NCBI GenBank assembly: GCA_000004695.1
Contig: CM000151.3
Location: forward strand, 2,048,001-2,112,000
DNA from: Dictyostelium discoideum
Taxonomy: Eukaryota
DNA: 64,000 bases
Reading direction: 5' to 3'
Numbering within the stretch: the stretch's first letter is position 1; the number at the start of each line of letters is the position of its first letter. Below the pieces are notes generated by a model. The model was not told the origin of the DNA, searched no databases, and worked only from the letters and a program-made list of their open reading frames with translations. Below are positions 3,969-60,886 of this stretch, one piece after another. Made by a program: the position numbers and the translations under genes.

Positions 3969-6900
3969 TTATAAGCCAATATCACATTTAACAAACTGTT
4001 GATCATAATAAAAATCATCTTCTTGATTAATATTATCATCTTCATTGTAATAATCACATTCCCAACCATTTTCATTACAATCAAATAAATCATCTTGATA
4101 ATATTGGTATTGTTCTTGTTCTACTCCTACATCATCTTTTTCTTGGTAATCATTATAAAAGAAATCTTCTCCTTGATAATCATCAAATGAGAAATTACGT
4201 TGTTTATCGTTAAAATCTTTTTCAAATTCATCAAATGTTAAATTTCTATGATTGAAACCATTACCATTACTATTATTATTATTAAAAAACTTCATTAAAT
4301 TTTGTATATCTTCACGAGTTGAATCTGATTTTGAAATTATTTTTTTAAATTCTTTAATTAATTCATCTTGATCTCCAACTATTTGTAAATTAGTTTCAAA
4401 TACCTTATAATAAGATTCATCAATCTTTGCCAAGAATACTAAAGTATGTAAAATTTGAAAATTAATTTGATAATTATTACTTTCATCTGATAATAAATTT
4501 TTTAATAATTGTTCAAAAAACTATAATAATAAAATAAATAAAAATTAATAAATGTAATATGATTATATGTTATTATTGAAATTAACTACTTACTTTTAAT
4601 TTTTTAAATTGATTTTTTAATTTTTTTGAACATTTAATTGGATTATGAAGTGAAATGATAACATTTGCCAATGGTATATAAAATTTAATTGATGGATTTA
4701 AAAACAAAGCAACTTTAATACCATTTAATAATGTTGAAATAACCTTATCATTCATTTTAATATTTAAAGATAAAGTAACTAAAAACTTTACAACTATTAT
4801 ACTAATTTGTAGAAGTGTTGTTAAAAAATGAGGATTATCAATACAAAGATTATGAAAAATTGGTAAAAGGTTTGATAGGGATTCAATGATTTTTGAATTT
4901 AAAATACAACCAATTCTAATTACTGATGGATCATTCTTTTCTTTTACTTTATTTAAATTTGTTTCTCTCTATCAATAATTGTGAAATTCTTATAAGGGTC
5001 TGAGAATTTATATGAATTTACAATTATTTTTAAACATTTTAAAACTGAAACATATGACGGCTGATCAGTTTCAATCACTTGAACTTTACCAAAATCTACT
5101 AAAAATTTATTAACTGTTTCAATTGGAATTAAATCTGGTGCTTTTCTAAATCTATAAATTTCTTCAAGTATTGTATAATCCATTATACCATCATTTATTA
5201 AATAATTATTTGAAAATAATTTTAAAAACTTTTCATGATTTGGTTTAACAATTGTTGATTCAATATATTCATTCTCTATTTCATTAAATAATAACATTTC
5301 TTTTTGTTTATAATTATCATCAATAAATTGGTATTGTTGTTGGTGTGCTTGATTGTAATTATTTATTTCATCCATTGGTATTGCATTTTCATATGACTCG
5401 TAATTTGATGATTCATTATCTTGGTAAATATCAATTTGTTGTTCTTGCTCTTGTTTTTGTTGTTGTTGCTGTTTTGAATCTTCATTACTATTTCCAAATT
5501 GTGTATATTCAATACTAATATTAAGTTCATCTTCAATTAGATCCTCTTGGAATATATCCATTTCAATTTGATATTTTTTATGAATTTTATTTTTTTCATG
5601 ATTGCTAATTAATTCAATATGACCATTTTGATTTTTTGGGTGAATTGAATAATAACTTGGTGGTTCATCACTTGGAAGTGTTGTTGTTGTTGCTTTTGTT
5701 GTTGGTGTTGTTATTGCTTTTTGATATAAATTATCGTTATTTAAAAACATATTACATGATAGTAATAGTGGTTGTTGTGGTTGATGTTGCTCTTTGACTA
5801 CCAATTTTTCAAAAATTGGTTGATATTGCTCTTTGACCACCAATTCTTCAAAAATTGGTTTCATTTGTAAGAAATCCAACATTTCTACAATATATTTTAA
5901 TTTTTGTTCATCTCCACCTTGATTGTAACAATTTAAAAAAACAATAGACCTTAATTGGCAAAGTGGAAAGTTGTTAAAAAAATCTTTAATTAATTCTACA
6001 CAATACTATTTAAAAAAAAAAAAAATAATAATAATAATAAAAGTGTGTTAATTTAAATAATTTTTTTTATAATATATATGTATTAATACGTACTGTAATA
6101 ATTAAAAATGGGGTTTTAATTGGGTCTGAAAGGATATTAAAATCAATATCTCCAGAAACAAAACCTTTGTTTACGACATCAATATCGAAACCATTTGATA
6201 AATTTGATTTCAATATATAATTCTGATTGAAAATTTTAAAAAACTTTGAAAAAGTAACTTTTTCAATATTTAATTTTATTGAATATGATAAACTCTTTTT
6301 ATCAACGAAATCATAATGATTTGAAATCGAGTTGATATCAAGGAATTGAATTTCCTTATAATTAATATTACAATCTTGGAAATATGATAAAAAACTATTA
6401 TTTATTATAGAATTAATATAATATAATAAACAATAGTATATTTCTATATATATTTGTAAAAGATTTAAAAATTATATATTAATATTCAAATATAAAAATA
6501 AAAAAATAAAAATAAAAATAAAAAAATAACTTACCACAAGATATATTTGATTTTATAAATTGAAAGTCATTTTCACTTTGGCAATTTAATATTTTATTTT
6601 TCAATGATTTTGAATCTTTACTTGAAAGATATAAAAGTCTTTCTACTTGTATTAAAATATCATAATTTTTGTAATCTTGATATTGTAAATTTGAAATTAA
6701 TTCAACTGAATTATAAATTTCAATTATTCTATTTTTTAATGGAATATCAGTAACAACCGATTCTAATAATCTTAAAAATTTATCTTTTTTTTCAAATGCA
6801 TCATATTGAACATATCGAAAACATTGAACCTAAAATAAAAAAAAAATAAAATAAAATAAAACCAAATTAGTTTTTTTTTTTTTTTTTTTTTAAAGGAAAA

Positions 6901-7275
6901 AAAATACTTGCATCTGGATAACCTAATAAAAAAATATTAATGAATAAAATTTCATCATTAAGAGTTGATTTTTTAATTTTATAATGAGTTTCAATTGATG
7001 TATCACCAAGTGTTGAAATTGTTAAAAGTTTCCATAATTCAATAGAGTTTAAAGAAAATGATATGGATTCTTGAATTTCTTTATAATTAAAATTTAGTTT
7101 TGTTCCGCATATATATTCTTGAATGAAAAGATTTTTTGATTCATGGTCATTACCAAAAATTAAAAATCTTTCATTTCGATTATTATTAAAAGTTGATTTT
7201 AAATTTTTCACATTTGATGTGGTTAAAGGCGCTGATAAATTATTTAAAATTAAATAATTTTTGAAATAAATATCT

Positions 7276-7310
<35 letters not shown>

Positions 7311-7385
7311 TTTTTTTTTTATTAAATTAGTTTGGGAAAGTAAAGAACTTTTTTCAATTAAAAGATTCTTTATTTTTTTTTCCAT
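3969..7385 (-). CDS. Large multi-exon hypothetical protein (about 6-7 exons, roughly 1000 aa); no recognised domain
   Basis: Minus-strand coding blocks run 7385..6908 (start MEKKIKNLLIEK, poly-N tract), 6829..6535, 6395..6094, 6005..4953, about 4950..4594 and 4520..3969 (acidic D/E/Y/Q-rich C-terminus). They are joined by AT-rich introns with GTAAGT/GTACGT donors. Introns 6534..6396, 6093..6006 and 4593..4521 were hand-verified as phase-consistent. Two junctions are not clean: a phase mismatch at 6908/6829, and an in-frame TAA at 4955..4953 with the ORF continuing in another frame. The product is not recognised. Confidence 0.4.
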
Positions 7386-7528
7386 TTTCTGATTTTTAAG
7401 GGTTTTTTTTTTTTTTTATTTTTTTTTTTATTTTTTTTAATTTTTTTTTTGTTCGCTTCCAATAAAAAAAAAAAAAAATAAAAATCTAAGTGTCTGCAAA
7501 TTTTGAATTAATAACTGGTTTTTTTTTG

Positions 7529-7562
<34 letters not shown>

Positions 7563-7991
7563 AAGGGGTAGGTTTTGAGAGAGATGCCTTTGGAAAATGT
7601 TTTGTTTTGTTTTAAGTCGACTTAAAAAATATCCTTTTTTTTTTTTTATTATTAATCAAAAATAAAAAAAATAAAAAAAAAGATTTGTTGCTCTTTTATG
7701 ATTAGTTTTGCGCATATGTATGTGTGAATAAAAAATAGAAAAAAAATAAAAAAAAAAGAAAAAAAAGAAAAAAATAATGCTGTTTTGTTTTAGAAATTGG
7801 CGAACTCAAATTCTAACGGGCAAATATTTTTAGTGAAGAAAAAAAAAAAAAAATAAAAAAAAATTAAAAAAAAAAAATACCTATTATTTTATGATAGAAA
7901 AAAAAAAAAAAAAAAAAACACACAAATTATTTATTATTTAACAATATATGTTATTTTTGACATTGAAAAAAAAATTATTTTAATCCTGGAA

Positions 7992-8743: not shown

Positions 8744-9388
8744 ATGTCTACACAATCACCAACTTCAACAAATAATAATATTAGTAATATTGCAAATCAA
8801 TGTAATAAAAGGATTGCAATGGTATGTGCATCCAATCAAAATCGTAGTTTGGAAGCACATCATTTATTTGTAAAGAATGGATTTAAGAATATAAGGTCAT
8901 TTGGTACATCAGCACATTGTAAATTACCAGGACCATCAATTCATCAACCAAATATATTTTCATTTGGTACACCATATCAAGAGATCTATACATCACTAAA
9001 GAATCAAGATCAAGAACTTTACATTAGAAATGGTTTATTGAATATGTTGGAACGTAATATCTCTGTTAAACTTGCACCAGAGAAATGGCAAGAAGAACAA
9101 CAATCAAAATTTGAAATCGTCTATACATTTGATCAACGTGTTTACGATGCCGTCATTGAAGATCTCTTACAAAGAGATGTATCCTCCTCACTATTACAAC
9201 CTGTACATATAATCAATTTACAAGTTAAAGATACTCACGAAGAAGCTGTAGGTGGTGCACAACATGCTTTAGAAATTACTTCAATCATTGAAAAAACTCT
9301 TAATTGGGAAGAGAAATTAGATCAAATTTTAGAAGATTTTTATAAACAAACTTCAAGACAATTTTTACATACTTTAATGTTTTATTAA
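8744..9388 (+). CDS. ssu72: Ssu72-family RNA polymerase II CTD phosphatase
   Basis: Single-exon 214-aa ORF. The N-terminal low-molecular-weight-PTP-like signature VCASNQNRSLEAH (CX5RS phosphatase P-loop) and the overall length (about 200 aa) match the Ssu72 family. Confidence 0.85.
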   Translation: MSTQSPTSTNNNISNIANQCNKRIAMVCASNQNRSLEAHHLFVKNGFKNIRSFGTSAHCKLPGPSIHQPNIFSFGTPYQEIYTSLKNQDQELYIRNGLLNMLERNISVKLAPEKWQEEQQSKFEIVYTFDQRVYDAVIEDLLQRDVSSSLLQPVHIINLQVKDTHEEAVGGAQHALEITSIIEKTLNWEEKLDQILEDFYKQTSRQFLHTLMFY

Positions 9389-54926: not shown

Positions 54927-55929
54927 TATTATGTATTTATATATATATTATATTATTGGAAAAAAAGAAAAAAAAAAAAAAAATTTGGAGTTGATGTGTG
55001 TGTGAGAAATGAAAATTTTAATAAAAAAAAAAAAAAAAAAAAAAAATTAATTTAAAAAAATAAAAAAAAAAAAATTGATTGTGAAGTGCAAAACTTTTTT
55101 TTTTTTTAATTTTTTTAATTTATTTTTTTTTTTTTTTAATTTTTTTTATTTTTTTTTTTTTTTTATTAAAACGGAAAAAATTGAAAAATAAAAAAAAAAT
55201 AATAATAAACAAGATAATATTATTATTATTTCATTATTTATTTATAACTCTTAATTAAATATTTTTCGTTTTTTTATTTATAGTTTTATTAAATTTTAAA
55301 AAAACAAAATAAAAAAAAAAAAAAAAAAAGAAATAAAAAATAATAAAATTTTATTAAAAAAAAAATGAAATAATGAAAAATTATATCACAAAGTAATTAT
55401 TTATTTTGGAAAAAATATCAGGTCAATTTTTTTTATTTTTATTTTTATTTTTATTTTTTTTTTATTTTTTTATTTTTTTATTTTTTTTTTTTTTGATTAG
55501 ATTTACCACCACTCTAATTGATATTCCATTTAAAATAATTTGATAATTTCACTAATCTTTTTTAAATGTTTTTAAAAGATATTATTCAAATGTGTTTAAA
55601 AAAAAAAAATTATTCTCCAATCACACCATTTTCAAAAACACCAATCAGTGGTTTTTCAAAAAAAAAACAAAAAAATTAAATATTTCTATAACATCAAATT
55701 AAAAAATAATAATAATAAAAATTTTAAAAATATAAAAAAAATAATAATAATAATAGTAATACACTTGTAATAATAAAAAAAAAAAAAAAAAAAAAAATTA
55801 TTCTATCTATCTATTTATTAAAAAATAATTAAATTTTATTGTTTATAAACAAGAAATAATTTATGTTGAAAAAATAAAATTTATTCAAAATTTTATTTTC
55901 TTTGTGTATTTTTCAGATCTATTTAAGAT

Positions 55930-56345
55930 CTAAAAATCTAAGGAAAAAGGTTTATTAGCTTGTTGACTTAGAAATATTCTAATAATGATTTCTACGTTAT
56001 CTTTAATCCAAGTACCCTGGGATTCAGGAATATCAAATTCTTTTCCGTTGAATTCAATTTTACCTGATTTTATATGAAATTCCTTTTTGTCCCAAAGCTT
56101 ACCTTCAATTTTGTATTCGGTAAAACTCATAAAATATGGTGTTGGAAGAATACGGGGGGTTGGTGCTGGATGAGCTATATTTTTAAAAAAAGGAAGAGGA
56201 AATTAATGAAATGAAATGTAAGATTTTTAAATTTATATAAATAAAAATTAAATATTTAGAAATTAATAATTTCAATTAATTTACCTTTACCACTTATTGT
56301 TGATTCCCCATCTTCATTAATTAATGTAATTTTCAATTCAGCCAT
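55930..56345 (-). CDS. Small (101 aa) protein of an unrecognised family, tandem copy 1; 2 exons
   Basis: Exon 1 is 56345..56285 ([26 protein letters not shown] donor, phase 1), the intron 56284..56175 and exon 2 56174..55930 ([82 protein letters not shown]). Confidence 0.6.
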
Positions 56346-57533
56346 TTTAAAATATATTTATTTATTTATTTAAAGTTATAATTTATATTATTTTTTAAAA
56401 AAAAAAGAGAATGTTATTAAATGAAGAAAAAAAAAAAAAAAAAAAAAAACAAAAAGAAAAAGAAAATTAAAAAAATTAATGGTTTTTTCACCCCAATTAT
56501 TATTATAATTTACATATCTCTCTTATATCTCTCTATTAAAAAAAAAAAAAAAAAAATTAAAATTATTTAAAATTGGCAAACTACAAAATCAATTCATCTT
56601 CACTCACCACCAAAACAGTTTTTTTTTTTTTTATCAATTTTTTGAAATTTTTTATTATTTTAATATAAGCTTAAATTAAAAGGTTTTATTATTTACAATT
56701 GTTACTAATTTAATCATGAGTTGGGCAGAGAATGTAATTGCAATAAAACACACATGCAGTTTTTAAAACCTAATTTTAATTTTAATAAATTAGAGTGTTG
56801 GTCTTCTTTTTATGTTCAAAGAACACCAAAAAGTATAAATATTGAATTTCTAATATATTTTTATTAAAATATAATAATTACTAAAAAAATGAGATAATAT
56901 ATAAGAAGGTTATAAATTTTATTAATTATGGTTTTAATAATAAGATGTTTAAAAAATAATAAAATAAATTATAAATTGGAAAAGAATAAATATTGCGAAA
57001 ATTTAAAAAGTATAAATATTGCGAAAAATTTAATAGAATATATTGAAAAAGTTTATGTTTTAAAGGGATTAAAAAACAATGTGGAATTTTCAATATATTT
57101 TTGGTGGAAATTATTTTGATTCTTATATATTTAAATCTTTTTTTTTTATTATTCATATTTTATAAAAAATAACACCCAAATACATTTGCATCATATATGT
57201 TTCTAATTTCTAAATCTGACAGTTCTTCAATTGAATTTTTTATTTTTTATTCTTTATTTTGGGTAAAATAAATTGCTTTATTTTAACATCCAATCAAATT
57301 TCTTTTAAAAAAATAATAAAAAAAAATATCAAAATTAAAATTATTATAAAATGTCCAACTACAATAAATCATCTCAACTCACCACCAAAACAGTTTTTTT
57401 TTTTTTTTTTTTTTTTTGTATCATCCACCATGCATTTATTTTTTAATGGTTTTATTTTTTTTTAATATTTTTAAATAATCAGCTGATAATGAATTAAAAC
57501 CAATAAATAAATAGTCTCTCCAATTAATTTATT

Positions 57534-57566
<33 letters not shown>

Positions 57567-57701
57567 TTTGAGACAAAATTTAAAAATTTTAATCTAAATA
57601 AATAAATTTATAAAATTTTATTCTATATTATATTTATGATGAAAATAAGATTAATGCAAATTTTTTATTTCTTTGTTTTTCATTGTATCTGTTTTTGAGA
57701 T

Positions 57702-58114
57702 CTAAAAATTTTTTTGGAAAATTTTTTTTGGTGGTACAATTAGATGTAAACTAACTTTGATGTGGTTTTCTTCATCATCTTTACTCCATGTGCCTTTAGA
57801 TTCAGTAATATCATATTCTTCTCCGCCGAATTCAATTTTACCTGATTTTATTTGAAAATCATTTTTGTCCCAAAGTTTACCTTCAGTTTTATATTGGATA
57901 AAACAGAAACAATATATTGGAGGAAATATTAGGGGAGCTGGTAATGGATGACCTATATTTTATAAAAAATCCAGAATAAAATGAAATGATATGTTAGATT
58001 TTTAAATATATATAAATAAAATTAAATATTTAGAAATTAATTATTCCAATTACCTTTACCACTTATTGTTGATTCCCCATCTTCATTAACTAATGTAATT
58101 TTCAAATCAGTCAT
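57702..58114 (-). CDS. Small (103 aa) protein, tandem copy 2 of the same family; 2 exons
   Basis: Exon 1 is 58114..58054 ([20 protein letters not shown]), the intron 58053..57953 and exon 2 57952..57702 ([83 protein letters not shown]). Exon/intron positions are identical to copy 1. Confidence 0.6.
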
Positions 58115-59218
58115 TTTAAAATTTATTATTATTATTATTTATTTATTTTTAAGAGTAATTATATTTAAATTGAATGTTGAAAAAAAATTTTATTAAATAA
58201 TTAAAAAAAAATAAAAAAAAGAAAAAAAAAAATAAAAAAAAAAAAATAAAAAAATTGTTTTTTTTAATAATAAATTATTGTAATTTATATCTCACTTGTA
58301 TCCCCATTAAAAAAAAATAATAAATAAAATAAAATAAAATGACAATCATCTTCACCCCTCCCACAATCAAAACAGTTTTTTTTTTTTTTTTATAAACAGT
58401 TTAAATTAGAGGTTTTATTATTATTTAAAAAAAGTTTATTCTATGTCAATTATTAAACTGATAACAATAATTTGTGATATGGTAATTTGGTGAGTGTTGT
58501 TGATGCTGTAATATATTATTAAAAGATTGAAAATCTTGATTTTTACCAATCATTGAATTTGATTTTCTAAAATTTGCTAAAATCTGACTAGCAAAAAAAA
58601 AAAAAAAAATAATAGAAAAAAAAAAAAATAATTAAAAAAAAAAAATTTGGCGCAAATTTTAAAGTAAATTGTTATTTAATCTTAAAACAATCAAATAACT
58701 GTTTATAAATAGTTTTTTTTATTGTTTTGGTTAAATTAATTGTTTTTAATTTAAAAAAAAAAAAAAAAAAATTTAGTGTGAAAACTCACTACAACAAATC
58801 TGCAAAATTAAAATCAAATAAAACAAATTATAAATAAAACTTTTTGTGGAAAGAATGTAATTGCAATAACTGAATGTTTGGTATAACTATATGATGAATA
58901 ATATTCTCCCATTTCAGAGGAAATGTAAATTATTAAACCTAATATGATGTTGAATTTCTTAATTTCAAAACTCCAAATACATTTGCATCATATATGTTTC
59001 TTATTTATTTAAATGTCAGATAAATTTATCTTATGTTTCCTCAATTGAACAAACAAAACCAAAACCACCTAATACATTTACATCATATATGTTTCTTATT
59101 TATTTAAATGTCAGATAATTAAATTTTAAAAACATAGAAATTATATATGATGAAAAAATAAGATTAATGAAATTTTTTATTTCTTTGTTTTCATTGTATC
59201 AGATCTGTTTTAAGATCT

Positions 59219-59628
59219 TTAATTTTTTGGGAAAAATTTTTCTGGTGGTCTAAATAGATGTAAATTAACATCGATTGCGTTTTCCTCATCATCTTTACTC
59301 CATGTGCCTTTAGATTCAGGAATATCATATTCTTCTCCGTCGAATTCAATTTTACCTGATTTTATTTGAAATTCATTTTTGTCCCAAAGTTTACCTTCAG
59401 TTTGGTATTGGGTAAAACGGAAAATATATATTGGAGGAAATATTAAGGGAGCTGGTAATGGATGACCTATATTTTTAAAAAGAGCCAGAATGAAATGAAA
59501 TGATATGTTAGATTTTTAAATATATATAAATAAAATTAAATATTTAGAAATTAATTATTCCAATTACCTTTACCGCTTATTGTTGATTCCCCATCTTCAT
59601 TAACTAATGTAATTTTCAAATCAACCAT
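59219..59628 (-). CDS. Small (102 aa) protein, tandem copy 3 of the same family; 2 exons
   Basis: Exon 1 is 59628..59568 ([20 protein letters not shown]), the intron 59567..59467 and exon 2 59466..59219 ([82 protein letters not shown]). It is about 90% identical in nucleotide sequence to copy 2, intron included. Confidence 0.6.
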
Positions 59629-60162
59629 TTTAAAATTTATTATTATTATTTATTTATTTTTAAGAGTAATTATATTTAAATTGAATGAGGAAAAAAAATT
59701 TTATTAAATAATTAAAAAAAAAAAATAAAAAGAAAAAAATAAAAAATAAAAAAAAAAGAAAAAAAAAATTAATTGTTTTATTTTAATAATAAATTATTGT
59801 AATTTATATCTCACTTGTATCCCCATTAAAAAAAAAAATAATAAATAAAACAAAATAAAATGACAATCATCTTCACCCCTCCCCCACAATCAAAACAGTT
59901 TTTTTTTTTTTATCATTCCACCATTTTTTTATAAACAGTTTAAATTAAAGGTTTTATTATTATTTATAAAAAGGTTTATTCTATGTCAAAATGGTGTAAT
60001 GATAAAAAAAAAAAACTGTATTTCCCAAATTAATTTTTTTTTTTTTTTTTTTTTTGAATTGGCGCCCAAATTAAAAAATAAAGTCTTTTTTTTTTTTTTT
60101 TTTTTTTTTTATTCAACTTTATTTTTTCAAATGTTGTAATAGATACAACAAATAATAAAAAC

Positions 60163-60309
60163 ATGTTAGGTACAAAAAGAAACTTAAGTGATACAAATGA
60201 TATAATTAATGATGAGAATGTAGATAATAATAGTAATGATAATAGCAATAAAAGATTCAAAACAAATTCGATCTCATTTGAAAAGAAATCGAATCCACCA
60301 TCATTATCG

Positions 60310-60353
<44 letters not shown>

Positions 60354-60886
60354 AACATCAACAATACCATTAGGATCACAAAAGCGTATAAATATTACAT
60401 CATTTTCAGGTCACAGAATTACTAGAGTAGTAAAATCTCAAAATAGTGAGAATATTTCAACCTCTTTATCAAAATCAAATATATTATTTAACGATTTATT
60501 AAAGAAACCAATTAATGAAATTTTAGAAGAGATAGAGAATATTGTAAAATATTTTTATTAATATATTTATATTTATATATTATAGTAATAATAATAATTA
60601 TAATAATTATAATACTAATATTTTATTTCTCAGGAATCATTAAAATTAAAATCAGAATTAATTAAAAATTCAAATTCATTAACGCCAACCAAATCAAAAG
60701 GAGTTAGTGAAGAGATAGTAAAGAATAAAGACAATAGATTATGGGTAGATAAATATGCACCAACATCATTTCATGATTTACTTAGTGATACAACTATGAA
60801 TTTAGAAGTACTAAATTGGTTAGAATTATGGGATCATATTGTATTTGATAAACCGTTATCAAAAAATTTAATAATGCCTTCAACTT

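Follow-up and report, generated by a model that had tools for sequence, protein, structure and literature searches.

The discoidin I genes of Dictyostelium discoideum are clustered paralogues that were duplicated together with their promoters and that encode small, starvation-induced proteins, either cytosolic or exported by an unconventional route. The genes for gp24 form a second such group, of which Loomis and Fuller (PNAS 1990, 87:886) reportedly cloned csbA and csbB, described as "a pair of tandemly repeated genes". Transcription of csbA starts in the aggregation zone and has been followed by live imaging as a marker of the aggregation stage (PMC10730084), csbA and csbC show increased expression in the aggregate stage (PMC4118049), csbB has a discoidin-like regulation that parallels dscA (PMC2920877), and hypoxia co-induces the transcripts of csbA, csbB and csbC, with the CsbB and CsbC proteins being detected and increased (PMC12750705). 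Moreover, a mutant deficient in csbA, csbB and csbC formed fewer aggregates, according to the passage of a later paper that cites Xu et al. 1996 (PMC5735089), and gp24 knockout mutants were not defective in phagocytosis (PMC2443395). According to this literature, Csb proteins contribute to early cell–cell cohesion. The region analysed here belongs to a stretch of 64,000 nt of D. discoideum DNA (contig CM000151.3 of assembly GCA_000004695.1, positions 2,048,001 to 2,112,000 of the forward strand; hereafter, the window), and it is the csbA-csbB-csbC locus of D. discoideum AX4, whose genes are already named as contact-site-B (gp24) genes. Taken as a whole, it is very probably best explained as this known csb tandem array, with turnover of its units and a common upstream module.

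To begin with, the G+C content of the window was low throughout (~14–27%), runs of A/T were long, and introns were short and AT-rich; this composition is characteristic of Dictyostelium, an origin that was confirmed by the protein matches given below. Scripted gene models agreed with an initial annotation, made from the sequence alone, on the presence of three minus-strand genes of two exons encoding proteins of 101–103 aa, with an exon 1 of 61 nt and an intron of about 100 nt. In all three, the GT..AG intron splits the reading frame in phase 1 past codon 20, with exon 1 ending in ...GGTAAAG directly before the GTAA of the intron, which in turn ends in ATAG. An exact-sequence look-up returned each of the three proteins as residue-for-residue identical to CsbA, CsbB and CsbC of AX4, which have consecutive RefSeq accessions (XP_644943, XP_644942 and XP_644941, respectively) and lie on an AX4 contig of chromosome size (8.48 Mb). 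Furthermore, a Pfam scan reported up to an E-value of 1 matched them to the family PF05720, Dicty_CAD (E-values of 2.6e-40 for CsbA, 8e-37 for CsbB and 1.6e-38 for CsbC), with bit scores of 136.7, 125.5 and 131 against a gathering cut-off of 23 bits and profile positions 1-80/82 covered. With identical proteins and a fitting gene order, no difference from the Csb/Dicty_CAD system of AX4 was found, and the locus is one and the same. Five related loci (L001–L005) were also compared, of which L001, L003 and L004 are syntenic with the window and L005 is not; the architecture of a single domain of ~100 aa, an exon 1 of 20 codons and an intron of ~100 nt was found with the same exon 1/exon 2 spacing in these loci.

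The cluster had initially been presented as an undescribed one, a claim that fails in view of the exact match to CsbA, CsbB and CsbC, the curated Pfam family and the published work on expression and mutants. A match to a well-described family, which the initial annotation had itself set against novelty, was precisely what was found (CsbA, CsbB, CsbC and PF05720), and the genes, for which absence of transcription had been considered, are transcribed and studied according to published work. An undescribed, newly amplified and uncharacterised gene family is therefore an extremely improbable description of these genes, as the proteins are exactly CsbA, CsbB and CsbC, they belong to a curated Pfam family, and their genes already serve as markers of development and have knockout mutants; in its favour, no solved structure was matched by sequence or by Foldseek, and the relatives found in database searches were restricted to dictyostelids. 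Such relatives, obtained from word-indexed searches and exhaustive hidden Markov model (HMM) searches, were few, all of ~100 aa, and came from Dictyostelium species and Cavenderia fasciculata. A further paralogue in D. discoideum is staC (PMC9117722). The csb cluster was correctly read from its sequence, yet it is already present in databases and in the literature.

The similarity among the copies was obtained by region from global alignments with shuffled controls (0.52–0.65 for the shuffles), which were used because permissive self-blastn (+1/−1) was uninformative in AT-rich DNA. csbA and csbB were 95% identical in exon 1, 96% in the intron, 90% in exon 2 and 90% at positions −200 to −1, while csbC compared with either of them showed 93–95%, 81–82%, 73–74% and 71–73%, respectively. 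At the protein level, identity was 84% between CsbA and CsbB and 61% between CsbA and CsbC, the latter being diverged at its C-terminus. These values agree with the first description of the locus, in which two copies were ~90% identical including the intron and the remaining one was diverged at the C-terminus. Synonymous divergence (dS) was ~0.08–0.09 for the pair csbA-csbB and 0.34–0.37 to csbC; the ratio of non-synonymous to synonymous divergence (dN/dS), based on small counts, was ~0.8–1.2 for csbA vs. csbB and ~0.56–0.60 vs. csbC. On these figures, selection on the csb coding sequence looks weak or diversifying. The intron of csbA and csbB (96%) is more alike than exon 2 (90%), and this, together with the high dN/dS, could reflect relaxed or diversifying selection, or else gene conversion of the 5′ half.

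Judging from this divergence, csbA and csbB are a young duplication specific to the D. discoideum lineage, and csbC is older. L001 and L003 each have one copy of the A/B type, 79–82% similar to csbA and csbB alike, in addition to copies of the C type. Because this A/B-type copy is about equally close to both genes, the csbA/csbB duplication is a recent event of the D. discoideum lineage, and the split between the A/B and C types is older than the related species compared. The duplicated unit runs from about −370, where a block of repeat family D17 is 94% identical between csbA and csbB, to ~80 nt past the stop codon (D13), and it holds the upstream element, the TATA region, T-runs, both exons with the intron between them, and the proximal 3′ untranslated region. 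The head-to-tail triplication with co-amplified flanks was borne out, as promoter, intron and parts of the flanks were duplicated along with the coding sequence. Tandem repeats in AT-rich genomes are error-prone in assembly, a general concern with nothing specific to the csb locus, and three copies arising as an assembly artefact, from a mis-expanded or collapsed repeat, have a negligible probability: the copies differ by 4–10% (A/B) and 18–27% (C) over exons and introns, which is too much for an artefact, each has its own protein record, and multi-copy arrays occur independently at the syntenic site of related genomes. As a separate observation, all three genes have the motif AGATCT at the stop codon, either overlapping it or immediately after it (59201–59218, 57698–57703 and 55915–55931), and csbA and csbC have a second AGATCT 5–6 nt further on (AGATCTTAAAACAGATCT), decayed to AGATAC in csbB; the paired motifs could form a short hairpin or provide GATC sites.

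The syntenic loci share the order MCM, AAA/RFC1-like, csb array, proteasome alpha and pyridine-nucleotide oxidoreductase. Their conserved flanking genes were 91–95% identical to those of the window, and their csb units ~74–82%. In L001, where the array is inverted, an upstream element of the A/B type was stranded by the inversion alongside the AAA gene (9030–9046, minus strand). The A/B-type gene that was thereby cut off from its element (4636–5040) has lost 1 nt from its exon 1 (TTGAAATTACATTAG), leading to an in-frame TAG, and it is not called as a gene in the assembly; this csbA-like copy could be a pseudogene or the product of a homopolymer sequencing error. In L003, an element is inverted (5705–5721) and lies ~280 nt before the ATG at 6001 of an intact-looking gene. 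The gene call of L003 at 6001–7711 seems to be a fusion across two neighbouring units, taking exon 1 from the first and exon 2 from the second. Furthermore, DDE transposase genes adjoin csb genes in L004 (8781–10073) and L005 (1–2890), the latter also having a retrotransposon pol gene, which hints that some dispersed csb copies moved with or near mobile elements.

The core of the upstream element, AAAAACTGTTTTGRTKGTG, was found exactly four times in the window, always on the minus strand, against an expectation of 0.06. The three gene-linked cores lie 248–260 nt upstream of their own ATG, in accordance with the conserved element that had been placed at about 250 bp before each start codon. Most copies of the element open with (W)GATAA and continue into an A-run of 10–25 nt, and two types were distinguished, the A/B type having ...CTGTTTTGATTGTGGG(GG)AGGGGTGAAGATGATTGTCATTTT and the C type having ...CTGTTTTGGTGGTGAGTGAAGATGA...TTTG.CA.TTTT. 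In csbA, the layout is GATAA, A-run, CTGTTTTGATTGTG and GGGGAGGGGTGAAGATGATTGTCATTTT. The element lies ~80–95 nt upstream of a TATA box, and these TATA boxes are putative core promoters in view of their position and of the T-runs after them. Moreover, the element is kept at −240 to −313 in L001, in L003 and in the non-syntenic L005, where the protein is only 55% identical to CsbA and the element is still found at −267. The upstream element is probably a shared cis-regulatory module. Such a common module, comprising GATAA, the A-run, CTGTTTTGRTKGTG, a G-rich box and GAAGATGA, would turn on all copies together at starvation/aggregation, because each of them carries it ~80–95 nt before the TATA box; it would probably serve a developmental transcription factor as an upstream activating sequence that tolerates either orientation, as the inverted element of L003 suggests. 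The G/T-rich box is reminiscent of GBF sites.

A different origin was considered for the element, namely that it belongs to a small non-coding RNA (ncRNA) gene on the opposite strand, as its promoter or its body, or that it is a repeat fragment, instead of a csb regulatory site. In Dictyostelium, ncRNA genes are preceded by a motif known as DUSE ([AT]CCCA[CT]AA), and the csbB copy read on the plus strand contains TCCCACAA, which fits this motif; one copy of the element also stands without a gene. However, the motif was found in only one of the four copies and was not enriched in the window (8 occurrences vs. 8.8 expected), no Rfam match appeared at E-values up to 1, and there was no tRNA. In addition, the 64 kb hold no further copy of the element, and its distance to the csb start codons is kept across genomes. 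An ncRNA, DUSE or tRNA-linked origin was rejected on these grounds, and the alternative as a whole is very unlikely, the regulatory module being preferred.

The fourth core belongs to an orphan upstream element with no gene behind it, a copy that had been noted at 57355–57400 and attributed to a decayed or deleted unit. The attribution is favoured by its type and by its relatives, as this orphan belongs to the C type: over two adjacent blocks (D12 and D11), it shares 87% and 81% identity with the region upstream of csbC, and it has ~84.6% identity to the sequences that precede intact C-type genes in L001 (7331–7453) and L003 (6975–7104). The 3′ element, AGAAACATATATGATGCAAATGTATTTGG, was found three times in the window with 0 expected. 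Its local duplication 3′ of csbA was as initially described; however, it does not follow every gene, as no copy was found in the window directly 3′ of csbC or csbB, and a third copy, absent from the initial annotation, lies 3′ of the orphan. Because this third copy sits ~175 nt downstream, the orphan would be a unit that lost only its gene, and it is best read, on the order and similarity of these blocks, as what remains of a csbC-like unit that was lost. Unequal crossing-over between units would make the array grow and shrink, and a single crossing-over or small deletion would have taken a second C-type gene from the AX4 lineage, the upstream and 3′ elements staying behind. It is less likely, though worth considering, that the orphan is a promoter fragment duplicated or transposed alone, with no gene lost from a complete fourth unit. 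A tblastn search found no coding remnant behind the orphan element, up to the 3′ element, and the gene-less or inverted copies of L001 and L003 mentioned above indicate that the block moves or inverts by itself. Against this, the orphan keeps the order of a full unit, and related genomes have at least two intact C-type genes vs. one in AX4, which fits a loss better than a gain. The relic of a lost unit is thus retained as the preferred reading, and the features described so far are collected in Table 1.

Table 1. Features of the csb locus in window coordinates; the last three rows are related loci, in coordinates of their own sequences.
Feature	Position	Strand	Details
csbA (Glycoprotein 24A, P16642)	59219..59628	minus	ATG 59628, stop ends 59219, 102 aa
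csbA exon 1	59568-59628
csbA intron	59467-59567		101 nt
csbA exon 2	59219-59466		including stop
csbB (Glycoprotein 24B, P16643; DDB_G0272562)	57702..58114	minus	ATG 58114, stop ends 57702, 103 aa
csbB exon 1	58054-58114
csbB intron	57953-58053		101 nt
csbB exon 2	57702-57952
csbC (Contact site B protein C, Q558X5; DDB_G0272756)	55930..56345	minus	ATG 56345, stop ends 55930, 101 aa
csbC exon 1	56285-56345
csbC intron	56175-56284		110 nt
csbC exon 2	55930-56174
csbA upstream element, A/B type	59840..59915	minus	core 59885-59903, 257 nt to ATG
csbB upstream element, A/B type	58320..58395	minus	core 58362-58380, 248 nt to ATG
csbC upstream element, C type (...CTGTTTTGGTGGTGAGTGAAGATGA...)	56560..56635	minus	core 56605-56623, 260 nt to ATG
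Orphan upstream element, C type	57297..57417	minus	core 57380-57398, no gene behind
csbA TATAAA box	59803..59808	minus	-180
csbB TATA counterpart	58284-58289		-175
csbC TATA counterpart	56509-56527		TATAAG and TATGTAAA, -171 to -182
3′ element, copy 1	59068..59096	minus	~120 nt downstream of csbA stop (family D8)
3′ element, copy 2	58973..59001	minus	local duplicate of copy 1 at a distance of 95 bp; 88% identity over 67 nt
3′ element, copy 3	57176..57204	minus	~175 nt downstream of orphan element
L004	5100-6500		one csb gene; orientation as in window
L001	4400-9100		three copies + exon-1 fragment; array inverted relative to flanks
L003	5500-12900		~five copies or fragments; orientation as in window

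The upstream element of csbA lies nearly exactly midway in a divergent intergenic region of 535 bp (59629–60162), between the ATG of csbA on the minus strand and the ATG at 60163 of the first open reading frame (ORF) of the AAA/RFC1-like gene on the plus strand. An action of the element on both genes is conceivable in principle. The first exon of this neighbouring gene contains a long CAA/GTT triplet run at 60296–60358, which corresponds to poly-threonine in the plus-strand ORF 60163–60561 and is ordinary for coding sequence of Dictyostelium.

Regarding the proteins, CsbA, CsbB and CsbC are of ~11.7 kDa, would be all-beta, and have no hydrophobic segment (maximum Kyte–Doolittle mean over 19 residues ≤1.23). 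No N-X-S/T sequon and no signal peptide were found in any of the three, and cysteines were few or none. Sequences free of sequons are at odds with the name "glycoprotein 24". The AlphaFold2 model of CsbA had eight strands, with a predicted local distance difference test score (pLDDT) of 90.8 and a predicted template modelling score (pTM) of 0.80, and the description of these proteins as beta-rich and lacking a signal peptide is consistent with both the model and the sequence properties. Export of Csb proteins, if any, would need an unconventional route. Foldseek searches with the CsbA model gave nothing significant in PDB or BFVD, and a sequence search of PDB gave no match. Weak matches to Calx-beta and Ig-like repeats appeared in a deep HMM search, and they were rejected as compositional or generic beta-strand similarity, not homology.

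At the level of the fold, the CsbA model would resemble the barrel of Hcp and phage tail tubes, a resemblance that is treated as a lead. It was compared with the tube protein Hcp of the type VI secretion system (T6SS; PF05638), for which Pfam gave Dicty_CAD alone at E-values up to 1, NCBIfam and PHROGs gave nothing, and hhalign of Csb against Hcp profiles gave probabilities of 0.4–0.6%. Furthermore, structural alignments of Csb with Hcp and phage tail-tube proteins showed identities of only 4–12%, and Csb is ~60 residues shorter than Hcp. A far-reaching version of this lead was also formulated, in which Csb would be a dictyostelid-specific barrel of the Hcp/phage-tail-tube kind, derived from bacterial prey or phage or else convergent, that self-assembles into rings or fibres at or outside the cell surface instead of acting as a classical receptor, and in which the array would be fast-evolving (dN/dS of 0.6–1, copy number, inversion) in the manner of recognition loci; this version is unlikely. 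The Csb family has no solved structure, and its confident model may point to a barrel of this kind.

Several points weigh against the known csb array with a common upstream module as the overall explanation. The case for a cis-regulatory module draws on conservation and position, and the nearby non-coding DNA of related genomes is itself ~82–88% identical, so that conservation of a 17-mer is modest evidence, with L005 providing the strongest case. GtaC was considered as the transcription factor; both csbB and csbC occur in Supplementary Data 2 of its chromatin immunoprecipitation sequencing (ChIP-seq) paper, though not in the top target sheet (PMC4506546). On the side of function, it is DdCAD-1 that was purified as the adhesion molecule of contact sites B, and Csb has no sequence relationship to it, so that the names "glycoprotein" and "adhesion" may overstate what is known of Csb. 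The interest that the locus retains would probably lie in its delimited upstream module, the confusion in gp24 naming, the lineage-specific turnover of the array and the lead on an Hcp-like fold. In particular, the module is precisely delimited and is a candidate for the aggregation-stage induction of csbA, which is already in use as a live transcription reporter.

Finally, two other systems close to the csb genes are set beside them. DdCAD-1 (cadA; PDB 1YHP/2B1O) was purified as the 24-kDa Ca2+-dependent adhesion molecule of contact sites B, and it is like Csb in the gp24 name, in the association with contact sites B and with early development (PMC2138044), and in the lack of a signal peptide and of a transmembrane segment (PMC2138044; for Csb, by sequence). 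In contrast, DdCAD-1 has an N-terminal Crystall_3 domain (beta/gamma-crystallin-like) and a C-terminal Membrane_bind domain, and Csb has neither of them. The possibility that Dicty_CAD is a domain of DdCAD-1 was rejected, as the Pfam domains differ, hhalign gave a probability of 0.5%, and there was no sequence match in PDB. Under one gp24 name, therefore, stand proteins that share no sequence or domain, and annotations that merge both are misleading. The discoidin I genes, for their part, are similar to csb as clustered, starvation-induced paralogues with shared upstream elements, while differing from them in fold and family.

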